Origin: a virus
Virus genome (UHGV): UHGV-0116669
Direction: 5' to 3' (one strand)
Length of the DNA stretch: 45,689 nt
The translations under genes were made by a program, and so were the position numbers. Positions within the stretch are counted from its first letter, which is position 1. Every line of letters starts with the position of its first letter. Positions 1 through 45,689 of the stretch are shown here, piece by piece. The notes below the pieces were generated by a model, which was not told the origin of the DNA, did not search any database, and was given only the letters and a program-made list of their open reading frames with translations.

Positions 1-3
1 GTG

Positions 4-35
4 TCCCCTGCATACATCTAACCTGATATGCAGGG
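4..35. repeat. Perfect 10-bp inverted repeat (CCCCTGCATA...TATGCAGGGG) with a 12-nt loop, downstream of the AlpA-like gene
   Basis: Read directly from the sequence; no coding context. Confidence 0.5.
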
Positions 36-86
36 GATTGAAAATAATGATGTTTTTTAAGTGTGAAAAATATTTTACTCGTTACT

Positions 87-287
87 TTACCCATCGGAGC
101 GGGACAGGAGCTTTTCTCTGAACTTGCAGTGGTCACTATATAACCACCTCGCTCTGCCGTGGATGAGTTTGGCTTTGGGGAGATCGCCGGACTTAATCCG
201 GTCGTAAATGAAGGTTTTTCCAAAGCCAGTATCCGCCATGATGAATTTCAGATCAACAAGGCTATCTGGTTGCATCTCATGTTTCAT
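87..287 (-). CDS. alpA: AlpA-family phage transcriptional regulator / excisionase-like DNA-binding protein
   Basis: 66-aa ORF; motif FIMADTGFGKTFIYDRIKSGDLPKAKLIHGRARW is typical of AlpA/Xis-type MerR-like HTH proteins; last gene of the leftward operon. Confidence 0.7.
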   Translation of the reverse strand: MKHEMQPDSLVDLKFIMADTGFGKTFIYDRIKSGDLPKAKLIHGRARWLYSDHCKFREKLLSRSDG

Positions 288-3659: not shown

Positions 3660-4573
3660 GCGGCCGCCTTATTTTTCAGAAATCCGAGTGCCTTAACGGC
3701 CTCTTCTTGAGTCAGATCTGATGATTCACGAATGTCACGGCGAAAAATCTTTGAACACAGAGGGAGCAGGTCGTCATCCCACGTCTTATTCATCGCAATA
3801 AGAACATCGTTAATCTCTTTAATGATCGATGTTTCTGCCGGGGTGATATCGCGTTCAGGCTGGCGCTGAGCGGCAAAGTTGATACCTTCTTCTCCCTCGG
3901 TGTTGACGTGGTCAATAGCGGCATCCAGGCGCTCACGGCGCGGCCAATATTTCGCAGCCTGCTTAACAACGGTCTTAAGGATCATCTGCTCTTCGTCTGT
4001 AACCCAAGGACACTTCTTGCTGTTGTCAGATTTGTATTTCTTCCACGCCTCAGACCGGTCGCGGATTGAGTAGATGGCATCGATGCGCATCGTATGAGTG
4101 AGGTAATCACCATCGTCAGTTTTTACCGTTACATACGCCCCTACGATGTCCCCGCGCTGCTCTTCGGTATCAAAGTCGTTGTAGATGTGGATCGGCGGCT
4201 TATCGAGCCCTTCGCGGCGGAACTGGTCGTTCCGACGAACTATGGCCGACTGGCACCATTTAATGGCGCCAGACTGCTGCGCAATGTGCATCAGACCCAT
4301 GTAACTGATGTCGAGGCAAATAGCCCCTTTACGCGGAACCAGATAAGCCAACTTCTGCGCTGGGTTGAGCGAAATGCCGATAGCCGCAACGTTGATGATC
4401 GCGTTCTGCGTGCTGGTCTGGTTCTGGAATGCAACTTTGGCGAGGTAGTCGTTGTTCTGAAATAGCTGGATGGCGAACTGGCTTTCCTTCGCCCACACCA
4501 TCCGCTCGTCAGTTGCCGCTTTAATGAAAAGCGGCTCCTGTTGTTTGACGAAATCAACAATGGTTAAGCTCAT
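3656..4573 (-). CDS. recT: RecT-family single-strand annealing protein
   Basis: 305 aa with RecT-like central region; paired with the YqaJ exonuclease. Confidence 0.75.
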
Positions 4574-4582
4574 GGAACCTCC

Positions 4583-4867
4583 TTAAAACGGGCAGCCGGT
4601 GCGGTGATCCCAGTCGTATTCCGCCTGGGCGTAAGCTACTGCCGAGATGAAATCGTTATATGCCTCGCCAGCTGCATCGCTGCGGAGGCCTTCGTATGGG
4701 CTTTTGTCCATCGGTACAGAGAAGCGGAACAGGCCTGACGGCTCTTTCGGCAGGGCGTCGATAATTTCCTGCGCCCGATCGTCAATCCACTTCTGCTTCT
4801 CTTCGGTCAGCGTTTGCTCGGCCCACTTACGCTCTTCGATCACGTCGTATGCGCGGTATGCGTTCAT
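4583..4867 (-). CDS. hypothetical phage protein
   Basis: 94-aa ORF in the leftward operon. Confidence 0.4.
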   Translation of the reverse strand: MNAYRAYDVIEERKWAEQTLTEEKQKWIDDRAQEIIDALPKEPSGLFRFSVPMDKSPYEGLRSDAAGEAYNDFISAVAYAQAEYDWDHRTGCPF

Positions 4868-4948
4868 AGCTCGCTCCTGAAATTTGGTTGTAAGAATCCC
4901 CGGCGCGATGAAAGCCGCCTGATAGTTCAGTTAAATTCTTCGTTTCGA

Positions 4949-5155
4949 TTACCGGCTGAGACCTTGTCCCAACCCGTTCAGATAAACTTCAACCAGCAAG
5001 TCGGTTGTGTAAGTCCGCTCAATCCCGCGATGCAGGTACAGGCGGCCGCGTTTATTTGCTGATGCTGTCCAGGTGCTTTCCCGATGCTTAACGAGCATCC
5101 CTGGCAGAACGGCTCCGCGGTTAACGGTCTGTGTCCCGTAATGATGACTAACCAT
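4949..5155 (-). CDS. hypothetical protein (uncertain)
   Basis: 68-aa ORF that fills the gap in the operon; no recognisable motif. Confidence 0.2.
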   Translation of the reverse strand: MVSHHYGTQTVNRGAVLPGMLVKHRESTWTASANKRGRLYLHRGIERTYTTDLLVEVYLNGLGQGLSR

Positions 5156-5258
5156 TGAACACCCCCGTAACGTGCAGAATTTTGATAATCAACGCTGTCC
5201 AGATAACGACGCAGATCAGCAGGCAGTAAATCAGTGAACGAATGCCTTGTTTGCTCAT
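5148..5258 (-). CDS. small hydrophobic membrane peptide (36 aa), kil-like position as first gene after pL
   Basis: Hand translation gives MSKQGIRSLIYCLLICVVIWTALIIKILHVTGVFNG; GGGGTGG SD-like sequence upstream; below the 60-aa track threshold. Confidence 0.35.
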   Translation of the reverse strand: MSKQGIRSLIYCLLICVVIWTALIIKILHVTGVFNG

Positions 5259-5441
5259 TTGCCACCCCAGCACGGATAGCTAACTGCGAGAACAGCAACC
5301 AAAAACGGAACGACCTTTAACCAAAAACTACGCCATGCAGGCTTGTCTTCTTCGCGGATCATCTCTTCACCTTTGCCTTATCGCGGCTAACGGAGCGTTG
5401 TTACCTATTACCGGCGCCAACGTTGTTGTTTGGATGGAGTA

Positions 5442-5470
5442 AATTTAGCGCGATGCTAAATAAATGGCAA
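5442..5470 (-). promoter_or_regulatory. candidate pL: -35 TTGCCA (5465-5470), 17-bp spacer, -10 TAAATT (5442-5447), overlapped by operator OL1
   Basis: Read on the minus strand; spacing and hexamers fit sigma70; the operator palindrome overlaps the spacer and -10. Confidence 0.45.
5443..5461. promoter_or_regulatory. operator OL1, a perfect palindrome ATTTAGC-N5-GCTAAAT
   Basis: 14/14 symmetric bases; the same motif recurs between cI and cro; weaker copies at 5468-5486 and 5501-5519. Confidence 0.55.
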
Positions 5471-5570
5471 TAGCAAAATACTAAATTATCGCTATGTGGT
5501 ATTTAGCGTTTTGATTTACTTAGGGTTTAATTTTTGGATGAAGTGTATTGGGGAGTTTTTAGGCATAAAA

Positions 5571-5590
5571 AAACCCGCCGGAGCGGGTTT
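5571..5590 (-). terminator. rho-independent terminator downstream of cI (bidirectional hairpin AAACCCGC-CGGA-GCGGGTTT with flanking A/T runs)
   Basis: GC stem plus a T-run on the minus strand, just after the cI stop at 5606. Confidence 0.6.
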
Positions 5591-5605
5591 GTTAAAGGGG
5601 TGTTA

Positions 5606-6283
5606 TCATGGAATATTCAATATCTTAGCATCGACTACAACCCCTACAATCCTACAGTTTCCGTTAATTTCAATCATCGGATACTGTGGGTTTAAGGGCT
5701 TCAGGAAGCGCCTTCCAGCATCAATTACTAACTTTTTGAAAGTGGCTTCATTATCGCCTTCCAACTTGGCCACAACCAATTTCCCATTAATAGGCTCTAC
5801 TTCAGGATCAACCAGGATAGCTGCACCTTCAGGAATGCTAAGGCCGACAGGAGATGTCATAGAATCGCCGTGGACATCTAACCAGAAAGAATCGTCAGAG
5901 CATTCGACGGTTGTTTCATACCAGCGGTCAATCGCTCTACGGTGATAAGGCTCCACTGCTTCCATCCACTGTCCGGCACTAACCCAGCTGATCACTGGGT
6001 AGCTCCCCTGAGGGGTATTTACTGATCTGAATGTTACGTTCGTGTGGTTCTCTTTGGCATGTAACGTATCCATCCAGCCGAAAGGCAGATTGAGTGCAGA
6101 TTCAATTCTACGAGCCATTTTATCGCCGATGTTTCTATGAGGTTTATCACCTATCAGCTGACTCAGCGCTGCTGGGCTTGTATCGATAAGCTCTGCAAAT
6201 TGAGCCTTGTTCAGGCCTGCATCTACACGCTGCTGTTCGATCAAGTTCTCCAGATTCGCTTTTCTAATCTCTTTATTTTCCAT
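5606..6283 (-). CDS. cI: cI-like prophage repressor (XRE HTH plus S24 LexA-like autopeptidase domain)
   Basis: Start placed at the in-frame ATG giving MENKEIRKANL...; HTH motif QFAELIDTSPAALSQL; C-terminal GDSM serine and FKKL lysine of the S24 dyad are both present. Confidence 0.75.
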   Translation of the reverse strand: MENKEIRKANLENLIEQQRVDAGLNKAQFAELIDTSPAALSQLIGDKPHRNIGDKMARRIESALNLPFGWMDTLHAKENHTNVTFRSVNTPQGSYPVISWVSAGQWMEAVEPYHRRAIDRWYETTVECSDDSFWLDVHGDSMTSPVGLSIPEGAAILVDPEVEPINGKLVVAKLEGDNEATFKKLVIDAGRRFLKPLNPQYPMIEINGNCRIVGVVVDAKILNIP

Positions 6284-6300
6284 CTGCTCATTTTTGTCAT

Positions 6301-6319
6301 TTTTAGCAGAATGATAAAT
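6301..6319. promoter_or_regulatory. operator OR3-like site TTTTAGC-N5-GATAAAT (12/14 to the palindrome), adjacent to the cI start
   Basis: Matches the ATTTAGC-N5-GCTAAAT consensus; a further candidate site at 6317-6335. Confidence 0.4.
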
Positions 6320-6340
6320 ATGCAAATTGCTAAATCTTTC

Positions 6341-6369
6341 TTGATTAGTATTTAGCATAACGCTAAACT
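6341..6369 (+). promoter_or_regulatory. candidate pR: -35 TTGATT (6341-6346), 17-bp spacer, -10 TAAACT (6364-6369)
   Basis: Hexamers and spacing sit upstream of the cro-like gene; operator OR1 overlaps the spacer and -10. Confidence 0.45.
6350..6368. promoter_or_regulatory. operator OR1, ATTTAGC-ATAAC-GCTAAAC (13/14 palindrome)
   Basis: Same palindrome family as OL1. Confidence 0.55.
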
Positions 6370-6398
6370 CCATTTTAAATAAGTCACGGGGAGGTCCC

Positions 6399-6632
6399 AT
6401 GAGTAATGAACTTTTACGCTGGCGAAAAGATGCCAGCACAGGCGAGTGGGCTCAGTTGGCAAAACTGGCAAACACAACCGTTGGTTATCTGGATCAAATC
6501 GCCTATGGAAACCGTCGGGCATCGCCTGAGAAGGCAGAGGCAATAGAAGAGGCCACCAAAGGGTTTAGCCATTACCAACCAGTATCAAAAGAGAGCCTTG
6601 TTTTTTCACGTCCGCGATGTTCCGCGGCTTAA
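6399..6632 (+). CDS. cro: Cro-like / YdaS-type HTH regulator
   Basis: 77 aa; divergent from cI; strong RBS GGGGAGG; HTH-like EWAQLAKLANTTVGYLDQIAYG. Confidence 0.55.
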   Translation: MSNELLRWRKDASTGEWAQLAKLANTTVGYLDQIAYGNRRASPEKAEAIEEATKGFSHYQPVSKESLVFSRPRCSAA

Positions 6633-6650
6633 CAACAGGAAATATCACAA

Positions 6651-6971
6651 ATGCAAAGCGCAATAGCCCGAAAGTTAGAACCGCCAATCCTCAACCCGAT
6701 TGAGATAGAAGGCATTTTGCTAAACCGCCTTTTATCCATTGGCCAGAAGGTTTTTGCAGAAATGCGGGGGGTGAGCGAGTCAACAATCAGTCGCCGGAAG
6801 AGTGAAGGTTATTACGCCGAAATGGCGAAAGAAATATCAGTGCTGGGCCTGCAGGTTGTTCCACCGGAGGCGGTGGTAGTTTCCCGCCACTACCTGCAGT
6901 CAGTTGAGACGCTTGCTGATATCGGATTACGTGCAGAGCGGTGCCGACCAGGACCGTTGGGATGGGACTAA
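6651..6971 (+). CDS. cII: CII-family transcriptional activator
   Basis: 106 aa; GQKVFAEMRGVSESTISRRK resembles phage CII HTH proteins; sits after cro. Confidence 0.6.
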   Translation: MQSAIARKLEPPILNPIEIEGILLNRLLSIGQKVFAEMRGVSESTISRRKSEGYYAEMAKEISVLGLQVVPPEAVVVSRHYLQSVETLADIGLRAERCRPGPLGWD

Positions 6972-7057
6972 TGAAGGGCAGAAAAGGCGAAAGCCGCAGT
7001 GGGCAAACACTAACGGCTTTCTACGCGAATTAACTGGATCAATTCACAGGAGTAATT

Positions 7058-7204
7058 ATGCCTAAGAGCAACAGATTTTACCAGGCACAAACACACAAAA
7101 ATGTTACCCGCGATCGCTTCATTCGCTCGGTTAACCCGGTGGTTGGCATGAAAATGCGCGCCATCCTGGAAGAGCTGAAACGGAAGGAGGAAGGCCGTGA
7201 GTAA
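7058..7204 (+). CDS. small basic protein (48 aa), translationally coupled to the O-like gene
   Basis: AGGAG RBS 7 nt upstream; MPKSNRFYQAQTHKNVTRDRFIRSVNPVVGMKMRAILEELKRKEEGRE; overlaps the GTG of the next gene (GTGAGTAA). Confidence 0.3.
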   Translation: MPKSNRFYQAQTHKNVTRDRFIRSVNPVVGMKMRAILEELKRKEEGRE

Positions 7205-15989: not shown

Positions 15990-16065
15990 GCTGGTTTAGC
16001 TCAGCAGGTAGAGCGCCTGCCTTGTAAGCAGGATGTCGGCGGTTCGATTCCGTCAACCAGCACCA
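15990..16065 (+). tRNA. tRNA-Thr (anticodon UGU)
   Basis: Cloverleaf folded by hand: acceptor GCTGGTT/AACCAGC, D-arm GCTC/GAGC, anticodon stem CCTGC/GCAGG with loop CTTGTAA, T-arm GGCGG-TTCGATT-CCGTC, encoded CCA. Confidence 0.8.
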
Positions 16066-16070
16066 ATTCA

Positions 16071-16147
16071 GCGCCATTAGCTCAACCGGAGAGAGCAATA
16101 GCCTTCTAAGCTATCGGTTTCAGGTTCGAGTCCTGAATGGTGCGCCA
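16071..16147 (+). tRNA. tRNA-Arg (anticodon UCU)
   Basis: Acceptor GCGCCAT/ATGGTGC (one G-U pair), anticodon stem ATAGC/GCTAT with loop CTTCTAA, T-arm TCAGG-TTCGAGT-CCTGA, encoded CCA. Confidence 0.8.
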
Positions 16148-44365: not shown

Positions 44366-45526
44366 TTACTGGACTGCACGACCATCGATGTAATCAGCCC
44401 ACCACTGCATCATCTCTCTGCGTTTATCCAGATACTGAGCATGGTTGTAAATTCCGCGTATTGACCCGCTGGCGGTGTGCGCGAGTTGTTTTTCAATCGC
44501 GTCCGCTGGCCAGCCATGCTCATTCATTATTGTGCTGAACTGGTGGCGGAATCCATGCCCGCTCGCCAGCCCCTCATAGCCAATCTGTCGAATAACTAAT
44601 AATACGGCATTTTCGCTGATGGGCTTTTTCTTATCATTCCGCCCGGCGAATACAAAAGAGGAAACAGGGCTTGTGATCGGTTTGAGAGTATTCAGGAGAT
44701 TTATTACCTGATCTGACATCGGAACCACATGAACGCGGCGCCCTTTCATTACCTCTTCGTCGATGGTTATCATCCTGTTTTCAAAGTCGACGTTTTCCCA
44801 TTGCATAGAACGGAGTTCTTTTGTACGCAGCGCAGTATATTGCAAAACCTGTGTGGCAATTTTCGAAATAATACTTCCGGAAAAGCCAGATAGCGCGTTA
44901 TTGAATGCTGGTATCTGATCTGCAGGAAGGAAAGGGTAGTTTTTCTTTCTATATCCCTTCATGGCATCAGCAAGGTCAGGAGCCGGATTATATTTGGCCC
45001 TTCCTGTAACGATCGCATACCTGAATACCTCGCCACATCTTCTTCTGGCTTTATTTGCCCTCTCCATTGCCCCACGTTCTTCAAACCTCCGGATCACCTC
45101 CAGTATCTGCATCGGCTCAATGTCCTGTATTTCCAGATATCCGATCATTGGCAGAATATCGTCACGGAACATGCGAGAAAGTTCATCCGCATATCCTTCT
45201 GACCAAACCTGCCGCTTATGGTCGTACCATTCATGATAAATAGCTGAAAATGAATTGTCCTTCACAGACAACTTTTTGGCCTTAACCGGATCGACCCCGA
45301 CAGAAACATCCTTCCTTGCAGTCCACGCTTTATCCCTGGCTTCCTGCAATGACATGAGAGGGTATTTGCCCACAGTCAGCACCTTCTCTTTGCCGTCGAG
45401 CTTATAGCGCAATTGCCACACCTTTTTGCCAGAGACCGGAACGTACAGGTACAGGCCATTGCTGTCGAGCATTCGGTAGGGTTTGTCTTTAGGCTTGGCG
45501 GCCTCTATCTGCTTAACAGTGAGCAT
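44366..45526 (-). CDS. int: tyrosine integrase, P4/CP4-57 type
   Basis: N-terminal MLTVKQIEAAKPKDKPYRMLDSNGLYLYV arm-binding (DUF4102-type) domain; C-terminal catalytic region with R..HxxR..Y. Confidence 0.9.
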   Translation of the reverse strand: MLTVKQIEAAKPKDKPYRMLDSNGLYLYVPVSGKKVWQLRYKLDGKEKVLTVGKYPLMSLQEARDKAWTARKDVSVGVDPVKAKKLSVKDNSFSAIYHEWYDHKRQVWSEGYADELSRMFRDDILPMIGYLEIQDIEPMQILEVIRRFEERGAMERANKARRRCGEVFRYAIVTGRAKYNPAPDLADAMKGYRKKNYPFLPADQIPAFNNALSGFSGSIISKIATQVLQYTALRTKELRSMQWENVDFENRMITIDEEVMKGRRVHVVPMSDQVINLLNTLKPITSPVSSFVFAGRNDKKKPISENAVLLVIRQIGYEGLASGHGFRHQFSTIMNEHGWPADAIEKQLAHTASGSIRGIYNHAQYLDKRREMMQWWADYIDGRAVQ

Positions 45527-45552
45527 GGGTAAAATTCCGGTGGGTAAAGTTG

Positions 45553-45572
45553 TTTTACTCGTTTTTTACCCG
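45553..45572. repeat. direct repeat TTTTACTCGTT(T)TTTTACCC, matching 73-92 at the left end of the window
   Basis: 11-bp exact core plus about 8 flanking matches; partner TTTTACTCGTTACTTTACCC at 73-92. Confidence 0.5.
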
Positions 45573-45643
45573 CCAAAAGGCGCGGTTGTCAACGGTCTTA
45601 GGCGAACTACCGCGAACAGAGATTTCATGAGAGGCTTGATACT

Positions 45644-45683
45644 GGCGGGATTCGGCGGACTATGGCGGATTGCGGCGAACTCT
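45644..45683. repeat. four tandem imperfect 10-bp repeats GGCG(G/A)NYTNY upstream of int; candidate integrase arm-type sites
   Basis: tGGCGGGATTC / GGCGGACTAT / GGCGGATTGC / GGCGAACTCT in helical-turn phasing. Confidence 0.4.
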
Positions 45684-45689
45684 AAACAA

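Follow-up and report, generated by a model that had tools for sequence, protein, structure and literature searches.

A probable attP of the KplE1/HK620/Sf6 type at the joined ends of a Klebsiella prophage genome, and the nature of its direct repeats

The window, the whole stretch of 45,689 nucleotides analysed here (UHGV virus genome UHGV-0116669), is very probably a Klebsiella prophage opened exactly at its own attP, which is of the KplE1/HK620/Sf6 type and lies between an RDF gene orthologous to torI and an int gene orthologous to intS. We observe this topology together with the integration site, the crossover core, the orthology of both proteins and the colinear conservation of every site. 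Once the ends are joined, attP covers 250 bp (window 92 to 1, then 45689 to 45527, minus strand). A direct repeat of about 20 bp present near both ends most likely consists of two integrase arm-type sites in tandem (GGGTAAA-N4/5-GAGTAAAA), such a pair lying in each arm, as judged from motif content, conservation and colinearity with KplE1.

Integration site, crossover core and the tRNA gene argW

The Klebsiella virion genomes vB_Kpn_Chronis and RCIP0114 are contiguous across the 45689/1 junction, at 94-97% identity. The right end of the window followed by its left end falls on adjacent coordinates in Chronis (...25903/25904...), and a 363-nt query spanning the junction matches both genomes end to end at 94-95% identity. 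The Chronis record, which derives from sewage, begins with the terminase and carries int, attP and the RDF gene mid-genome. On the minus strand of the circularised form the order is RDF, attP, int, as the sequence-only reading had foreseen when it described an excisionase-then-integrase order upon circularisation.

The integrated form is found in K. pneumoniae. Many chromosomes with the exact Int protein read fadL-mlaA-yfdC-tRNA-Arg(CCU)/int at the int end, and tRNA-Arg(cct) stands directly before the P' arm in three lysogen loci. At the other end, host DNA begins about 90 bp past the exact RDF protein (RDF/DUF6016...LysR-type gene). Collection blocks indexed with the identical Int protein number 505, and those with the identical RDF protein 6118. 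An unoccupied site is present in K. pneumoniae ATCC 13883, where both host flanks meet at an intact 75-nt tRNA-Arg(CCU). A 38-nt pattern for the empty attB had no match in the genome-contig scan because of one SNP in the host flank (TATAAAAG vs TATAAACG); a shorter pattern matched 61 loci, ATCC 13883 among them. The element is thus inserted in argW (tRNA-Arg before the P' arm, empty site in ATCC 13883), and host genes are found beyond both ends, on the tRNA-Arg side at int and on the DUF6016/LysR side at the RDF gene.

After integration int, whose promoter is inside attL, lies at one prophage end and the RDF gene (attR) at the other, and the virion genomes have attP between the two genes. Lysogen junctions and empty site therefore agree with the suggestion of an integrated prophage bounded by att sites, with int and an excisionase-type gene at opposite ends. 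A permuted complete genome had been offered as the alternative to a prophage. Both descriptions hold, as the integrated and excised forms of one element, and they do not compete.

The left end of the window carries the following features:

1-12, minus strand: att core TGCAGGGGACAC, the only stretch identical in attP, attB, attL and attR
1-25, minus strand: diverged version, carried by the phage, of the argW 3' part: CAGGTTAGATGTATGCAGGGGACAC, matching the tRNA at 21/25 positions (local alignment)
4-14 / 27-37, no strand assigned: perfect inverted repeat of 11 bp, 100% complementary, with a 12-nt loop

The core was defined by comparing the window junction, the ATCC 13883 empty site, eight attL copies and seven attR copies. 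From this four-way comparison it follows that the window runs from just past the attL core up to and including that of attR. The core occurs once in the window and corresponds to the T-stem/acceptor portion at the 3' end of tRNA-Arg(CCU), as far as the first C of CCA; two loci, one of them ATCC 13883, confirmed the argW sequence. The 25-nt tRNA fragment at the left end was not called by ARAGORN, as expected for a fragment. An attB had been anticipated in uninfected hosts as a single copy of the repeat core: the empty site exists, but its core is TGCAGGGGACAC and the repeats are absent from it.

After the core, the Klebsiella attP continues with TT and not with CAT (ACAC/TT vs ACACCAT), and the attL copies (8/8) read ...GGGGACAC/TTGTTT. 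Since the core ends before CCA and TT follows, argW loses its encoded CCA in lysogens; the length given by ARAGORN for tRNA-Arg(CCU) is 73 nt there vs 75 nt when the site is empty. In an eight-phage attP alignment (described below), ACACCAT is kept by the members from Erwinia and E. coli. The core of KplE1 has 16 nt, CTGCAGGGGACACCAT (PMC2951348). This CCA-restoring core is not found here, where 12 nt are common to the four att sites, a lineage-specific variant. For Kapi1, it has been emphasised that integration leaves the tRNA intact (PMC8787464).

It is conceivable, though unlikely, that lysogeny acts as a translational switch for AGG codons, provided that the CCA-less argW measurably lowers or delays the supply of mature tRNA-Arg(CCU), for example through dependence on the CCA-adding enzyme and 3' trimming. 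A separate conjecture is that the hairpin formed by the core and its inverted copy might, in the excised form only, serve for conditional termination or for processing between the RDF gene and int. The window also encodes a tRNA-Arg(UCU) (16071-16147). That this tRNA makes up for the damaged argW is unsupported as a general rule, since Chronis shares the CCA-less attP and only a tRNA-Asn is annotated in it.

The perfect inverted repeat described earlier at the left end is present, although it spans 11 bp at 4-14/27-37 and not 10 bp at 4-35. One of its arms is the att core itself. The CCCCTGC...GCAGGGG repeat is conserved in eight of eight attP sequences and its loop is free to vary. On the minus strand it forms an RNA hairpin (-21 kcal/mol, z = -3.6) just downstream of the RDF gene; the equivalent KplE1 hairpin has -17.7 kcal/mol. 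The repeat may function as DNA, or else in termination or RNA processing after the RDF gene. Taken as a pair of core-type Int sites, its arms are 12-17 bp apart, which exceeds an ordinary overlap region; covariation cannot decide on this reading, since the tRNA dictates the right arm.

The direct repeats and the integrase arm-type sites

The left copy of the direct repeat, TTTTACTCGTTACTTTACCC (73-92), extends across the stop codon (87-89) that ends the ORF at 87-287 on the minus strand. The right copy, TTTTACTCGTTTTTTACCC (45553-45571), lies 27-45 bp upstream of the int ATG (45526). The two share the 11-mer TTTTACTCGTT, which has no third copy in the window, and can be aligned locally over about 33 columns, including a 1-nt indel, in agreement with the 11-bp exact core and the flanking similarity over about 30 bp first noticed. 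The shared 11-nt word alone is modestly unusual: between terminal 250-bp segments it is reached by 22/2000 shuffles and by 43/2000 random real segment pairs. The shorter motif GRGTAAA is far more telling, with 6 occurrences in the 325 bp around the junction, where its frequency in the remainder of the window predicts 0.12 (Poisson P ~4e-9). Four of these candidate TAAA arm-type sites are on P' and two on P:

73-80, minus strand: P arm, core-proximal arm-type site (by homology), GAGTAAAA; homologue GGGTAAAA in KplE1/HK620 attR, in an invariant G.GTAAAA column block
85-92, minus strand: P arm, core-distal arm-type site (by homology), GGGTAAAG; overlaps the RDF stop codon, with ATGGGTAAA invariant in eight phages
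45564-45571, minus strand: P'1 arm-type site (by homology), GGGTAAAA; right half of the right repeat, overlapping the -10 box, with CGGGTAAAAA invariant in eight phages
45553-45560, minus strand: P'2 arm-type site (by homology), GAGTAAAA; left half of the right repeat (KplE1 has P'1-P'4)
45542-45549, plus strand: P'3 arm-type site (by homology), GGGTAAAG; inverted with respect to P'1/P'2, with TTTACCC invariant in eight phages
45527-45534, plus strand: P'4 arm-type site (by homology), GGGTAAAA; inverted and abutting the int start codon, with TTTTACCCATG invariant in eight phages

The core-proximal P-arm site forms the left half of the left repeat.

The attP alignment includes eight phages: the window, Chronis, RCIP0114, KplE1 (whose attP was rebuilt from attR and attL), HK620, Sf6 and the Erwinia phages 49 and Midgardsormr38. 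The sequences are colinear over about 297 bp, interrupted by a single 1-nt gap. Sharply delimited blocks without any variation coincide exactly with the core, TTGACA, the six GGGTAAA-type sites and the five GTTCG-type sites. The GGGTAAA-type sites are invariant at the same positions in all eight phages, which come from four host genera. The members of a pair are spaced by 12 bp in the P arm, and in the P' arm by 11 bp in 6/8 phages and by 10 bp in the two Erwinia phages; this spacing is kept while the flanking bases diverge.

KplE1 has four IntS arm-type sites, P'1-P'4, all with TAAA, of which P'1 lies over the -10 box (PMC2951348). The genome coordinates of that study were converted onto K-12 and then colinearly onto the window. 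The site assignments made in this way depend on identities to KplE1 of 75% for the DNA and 84-86% for the proteins. The P-arm sites are assigned on the shared motif, their conservation and the HK620 GenBank record (2001), which annotates the homologous P-arm pair as 'repeat_region attP'; they should be taken as putative.

AlpA-binding repeats in a CP4-57-like alpA-int unit had also been proposed; on this view the AlpA/TorI-like RDF, and not the integrase, binds the repeats. Direct repeats in one arm of att are common targets of RDFs. Moreover, one copy adjoins the RDF gene, and the other lies over the int promoter, a site of repression by the RDF in KplE1. However, the TorI sites of KplE1 are GTTCG/GTCCG/GATCG and are all on attL, its TAAA sites are IntS arm-type sites, and the published coordinates map unambiguously. 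The repeat is present on both arms, as is the case for arm-type sites, and the protein has no Pfam Phage_AlpA match at E<=0.01. Binding of the repeats by the RDF is thus very unlikely, and the colinearity with the TAAA integrase arm-type sites of the experimentally dissected KplE1 attL indicates that they are probably not AlpA-binding sequences.

Another explanation would be that the two copies resemble each other by chance or through other constraints (an A/T-rich -10 box on the right, the C-terminal codons and stop of the RDF gene on the left), with no DNA-binding function in common. An 11-mer shared by two 250-bp segments does arise in 1-2% of controls, and the right copy contains the -10 box as the left one contains the stop codon. 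Because of these overlaps, part of the conservation could indeed reflect such constraints. This would not account for six copies of one 7-mer in 325 bp, two of them inverted and serving neither constraint, nor for a pair spacing conserved across eight phages whose flanks have diverged. In addition, mutagenesis in KplE1 identifies the P' TAAA sites as IntS sites. We consider this explanation extremely unlikely.

Finally, there is next to no chance that the repeats are attL/attR cores duplicated by integration: they are near both window ends, in direct orientation and with an exact 11-mer in common, but the four-way att comparison refutes them as cores, since the sequence common to attP, attB, attL and attR is TGCAGGGGACAC at the very terminus (window 1-12), whereas the repeats sit 61-80 bp and 119-137 bp inside the prophage ends, differ by an indel, are absent from the empty attB and occur together in the single attP of virion genomes.

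Recombination proteins, RDF sites and the int promoter

The arm-type site pairs are accompanied by the following genes and sites:

44366-45526, minus strand: int, 386 codons, for an IntS orthologue; the product is a tyrosine recombinase of the heterobivalent kind, its arm-DNA-binding domain being N-terminal
87-287, minus strand: RDF gene, TorI/HkaC orthologue (previously labelled alpA), 66 codons, last gene of the leftward early operon
45655-45682, minus strand: RDF-site block I1;2 (by homology), GAGTTCGC (45675-45682), 12 nt, TAGTCCGC (45655-45662), colinear with KplE1 CAGTTCGC-N12-CAGTCCGC
45592-45619, minus strand: RDF-site block I3;4;5 (by homology), CTGTTCGC-GG-TAGTTCGC-CT-AAGACCGT, colinear with KplE1 CAGTTCGT-CA-TGGTTCGC-TT-CAGATCGT
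45563-45592, minus strand: predicted int promoter in the P' arm, -35 TTGACA (45587-45592), 18-nt spacer, -10 TAAAAA (45563-45568), with hexamers and spacing as in the mapped PintS of KplE1

Int is identical to E. coli K-12 IntS at 324/385 positions (84%). It matches PF13356 (Arm-DNA-bind_3), PF22022 (Phage_int_M) and PF00589 (Phage_integrase), all above cut-off, and thus has the arm-binding, central and catalytic domains of an IntS orthologue. The RDF is orthologous to TorI/HkaC. It shares 57/66 residues (86%) with K-12 TorI and matches PDB 1Z4H (the TorI NMR structure, 'Tor inhibition protein') over its full length (E = 9e-38). Its gene is included in a series of overlapping minus-strand ORFs (87-1686), the others lying upstream of it. 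The protein has no Phage_AlpA match in Pfam at E<=0.01, only HTH_17 at 16.6 bits, under the cut-off of 27, and no NCBIfam match. The name alpA is therefore a loose label, and the CP4-57-like AlpA unit proposed for this region gives way to a TorI orthologue.

In KplE1, TorI binds cooperatively to five sites on attL, with GTTCG/GTCCG/GATCG (PMC2951348). They are arranged in two blocks, 8-12-8 and 8-2-8-2-8, the latter beside the -35 box (PMC2951348). Five putative RDF sites (GTTCG/GTCCG/GACCG), conserved in sequence and spacing, are found in the P' arm of the window. The motif CGRWC occurs 5 times in 110 bp vs 0.44 expected, and is not found in the P arm. GTTCGC and GT(C/T)CGC of block I1;2 are conserved in eight of eight attP sequences; block I3;4;5 has a 10-bp phasing and abuts the -35 box.

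Four 10-bp-phased GGCG(G/A) units are present at 45644-45683, as had been noticed from the sequence. They had been taken for integrase arm-type sites; they contain instead the homologues of TorI sites I1 and I2, which correspond to the first and third phased units counted from the window end. Klebsiella attL copies differ in the second unit (AATCCGCC, AATTCGTA, AATCCGTA), as would be expected if only I1 and I2 are under constraint.

The int promoter of KplE1 has been mapped, with the hexamers TTGACA and TAaAAa (PMC2951348). The promoter predicted here is called on its identity to this mapped PintS. A generic promoter scan called no promoter at the right end of the window, because the -10 box TAAAAA is without the T at position 6 that the scan rule requires.

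Which protein binds which site, and how the module is regulated, are proposed here by homology with KplE1. The N-terminal domain of Int would occupy the six arm sites and its catalytic domain the core, forming an intasome. Int and host IHF would then recombine attP with the 3' end of argW, strand exchange taking place inside the 12-bp core TGCAGGGGACAC common to both. The int promoter is overlapped by P'1 and flanked by I4/I5, so that repression by Int and the RDF would be expected. Following the KplE1 precedent, Int acting at P'1 and the RDF acting at I4/I5 would keep int at a low level in the prophage. Upon induction, the RDF made from the early operon would coat the five attL sites cooperatively and direct excision.

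Relation to known recombination modules

KplE1 (CPS-53) of E. coli K-12 is at the same locus, yfdC-argW/.../LysR-type gene (PMC2951348, PMC3509656). Int (84%) and RDF (86%) identities are high and the attP sequences align almost without gaps. KplE1 also shares the four P' and two P-arm TAAA sites, the five GTTCG-type RDF sites in the same two blocks, the -35/-10 hexamers with the 18-nt spacer, and the location of int and RDF gene at opposite prophage ends. However, its core has 16 bp (CTGCAGGGGACACCAT) vs 12 bp here (TGCAGGGGACAC/TT), the encoded CCA being lost in Klebsiella lysogens, and its inverted repeat at the core has 7-8 bp vs 11 bp here. KplE1 is a 10-kb defective remnant, whereas the window is a full-length phage genome of 45.7 kb.

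HK620 and Sf6, like Kapi1, CUS-3, HK633, IME10 and N7, have the order RDF-attP-int in the virion or circular genome. The attP regions of these seven phages and of the two Erwinia phages are about 75% identical to that of the window, for HK620/Sf6 across 358 bp. The HK620 record places three 'repeat_region attP' features, an attP core and int promoters at positions homologous to those of the window. The members of the HK620/Sf6 group are P22-like podoviruses of E. coli and Shigella, whereas the window has a Klebsiella backbone, as do Chronis and RCIP0114; the presence of the att module on a different phage backbone therefore reflects the usual mosaic exchange. The location of int and the RDF gene at opposite prophage ends had been regarded as unusual. 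It is in fact the defining feature of the KplE1/HK620/Sf6/Kapi1 module (PMC2951348, PMC8787464) and results from the position of attP between int and xis in that group (PMC8787464).

Phage lambda resembles the window in its heterobivalent tyrosine integrase, its arm-type and core-type sites, and its small winged-helix RDF acting on phased sites in one arm and encoded at the end of the leftward early operon. In lambda, however, attP lies beyond int, so that the prophage keeps xis next to int and both are transcribed jointly from pL. In the window attP separates the two genes, so there is no adjacent xis-int cassette; the int promoter lies inside attL, expression is uncoupled, and the candidate RDF sites are on the int-proximal arm (attL), not on attR.

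The AlpA-IntA pair of CP4-57 is similar in combining a P4-family-type integrase (DUF4102/Arm-DNA-bind_3 N-terminus), inserted in a small-RNA gene, with a small HTH protein promoting excision. CP4-57 is inserted at ssrA, its AlpA is a transcriptional activator of intA, and both genes are near the same prophage end. In the window the insertion is in argW, the genes are at opposite ends and the RDF is a TorI orthologue that gives no Phage_AlpA match at E<=0.01.

The finding is thus real but ordinary: this is a Klebsiella member of the already described KplE1/HK620/Sf6 module. All the features of the module that can be tested by sequence are present, with one exception, the 12-nt core followed by TT. 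The exact att boundaries, core, arm sites, RDF sites and int promoter provide an annotation for a widespread K. pneumoniae prophage group, and the experimentally dissected KplE1 model of E. coli transfers site by site to Klebsiella phages. No new question is opened by this result. The sole non-trivial point is that the Klebsiella phages of this module leave the host argW without its encoded CCA.

The 3' end of argW after integration

In the Klebsiella lineage the attP core is directly followed by TT rather than CAT (window 1-12 with 45688-45689). In all eight lysogens examined (attL loci L002-L009, about 2826-2845), the tRNA-Arg(CCU) gene ends in ...GGGGACAC followed by TTGTTT and lacks the encoded CCA, while attR holds the displaced 3' end of the gene, CCA included. 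This differs from the E. coli and Erwinia relatives, where the CCA is restored on integration; the Klebsiella-lineage attP does not restore it.

The window also carries tRNA genes of its own:
window 15990-16147, adjacent genes for tRNA-Thr(UGU) and tRNA-Arg(UCU)
A tie between phage tRNA genes and the damaged argW is not supported, because Chronis, whose attP matches that of the window, is annotated with tRNA-Asn only.

One locus shows an atypical junction (L017; GCA_900451725.1, UGLI01000001.1; 3270-3420). Its prophage RDF protein is identical and its P arm near-identical, with single-base differences. The prophage junction reads TGCAGGGG joined to CAACGCTGCC, and a truncated MgtE-like ORF follows at once in place of the argW flank. 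This corresponds either to integration at a secondary site or to a rearrangement.

Sequence and annotation of the attachment site

The RDF sites I1 and I2 of the P' arm are constant across the Klebsiella attL copies (L002-L009), whereas the unit between them (window 45660-45672) varies as AATCCGCC, AATTCGTA, AATCCGTA or AATCCGCT. The ATCAAG at window 45627-45632 (minus strand) is kept in six of the eight aligned phages and differs in the two Erwinia phages. It resembles half of an IHF consensus.

Two small ORFs, 'hypothetical' in the public records, cross attP:
Chronis (L001) 2727-2912, gp28, over the P' arm and core
HK620 (L080) 211-351, hkaB, over the P arm and core
These are probably not genes, because integration would split both ORFs in a prophage.

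The window holds eight copies of the motif GGGTAAAA, where shuffles predict about one. Six of the eight fall outside the attachment site:
window 2688, 8748, 8893, 16266, 21307 and 38683, scattered GGGTAAAA copies, both strands
Codon or stop-codon context may possibly be the cause of these copies.

Genes beside the integrase

Although the integrase is identical among L002-L009, the neighbouring genes on its downstream side (about 4300-7161) vary between lysogens. They include GDSL lipase-like tail proteins and an acyltransferase; L007 has a reverse transcriptase (RVT_1) there, and L008 has SRAP together with a Y-family polymerase. Differing phage backbones or cargo have this recombination module in common.
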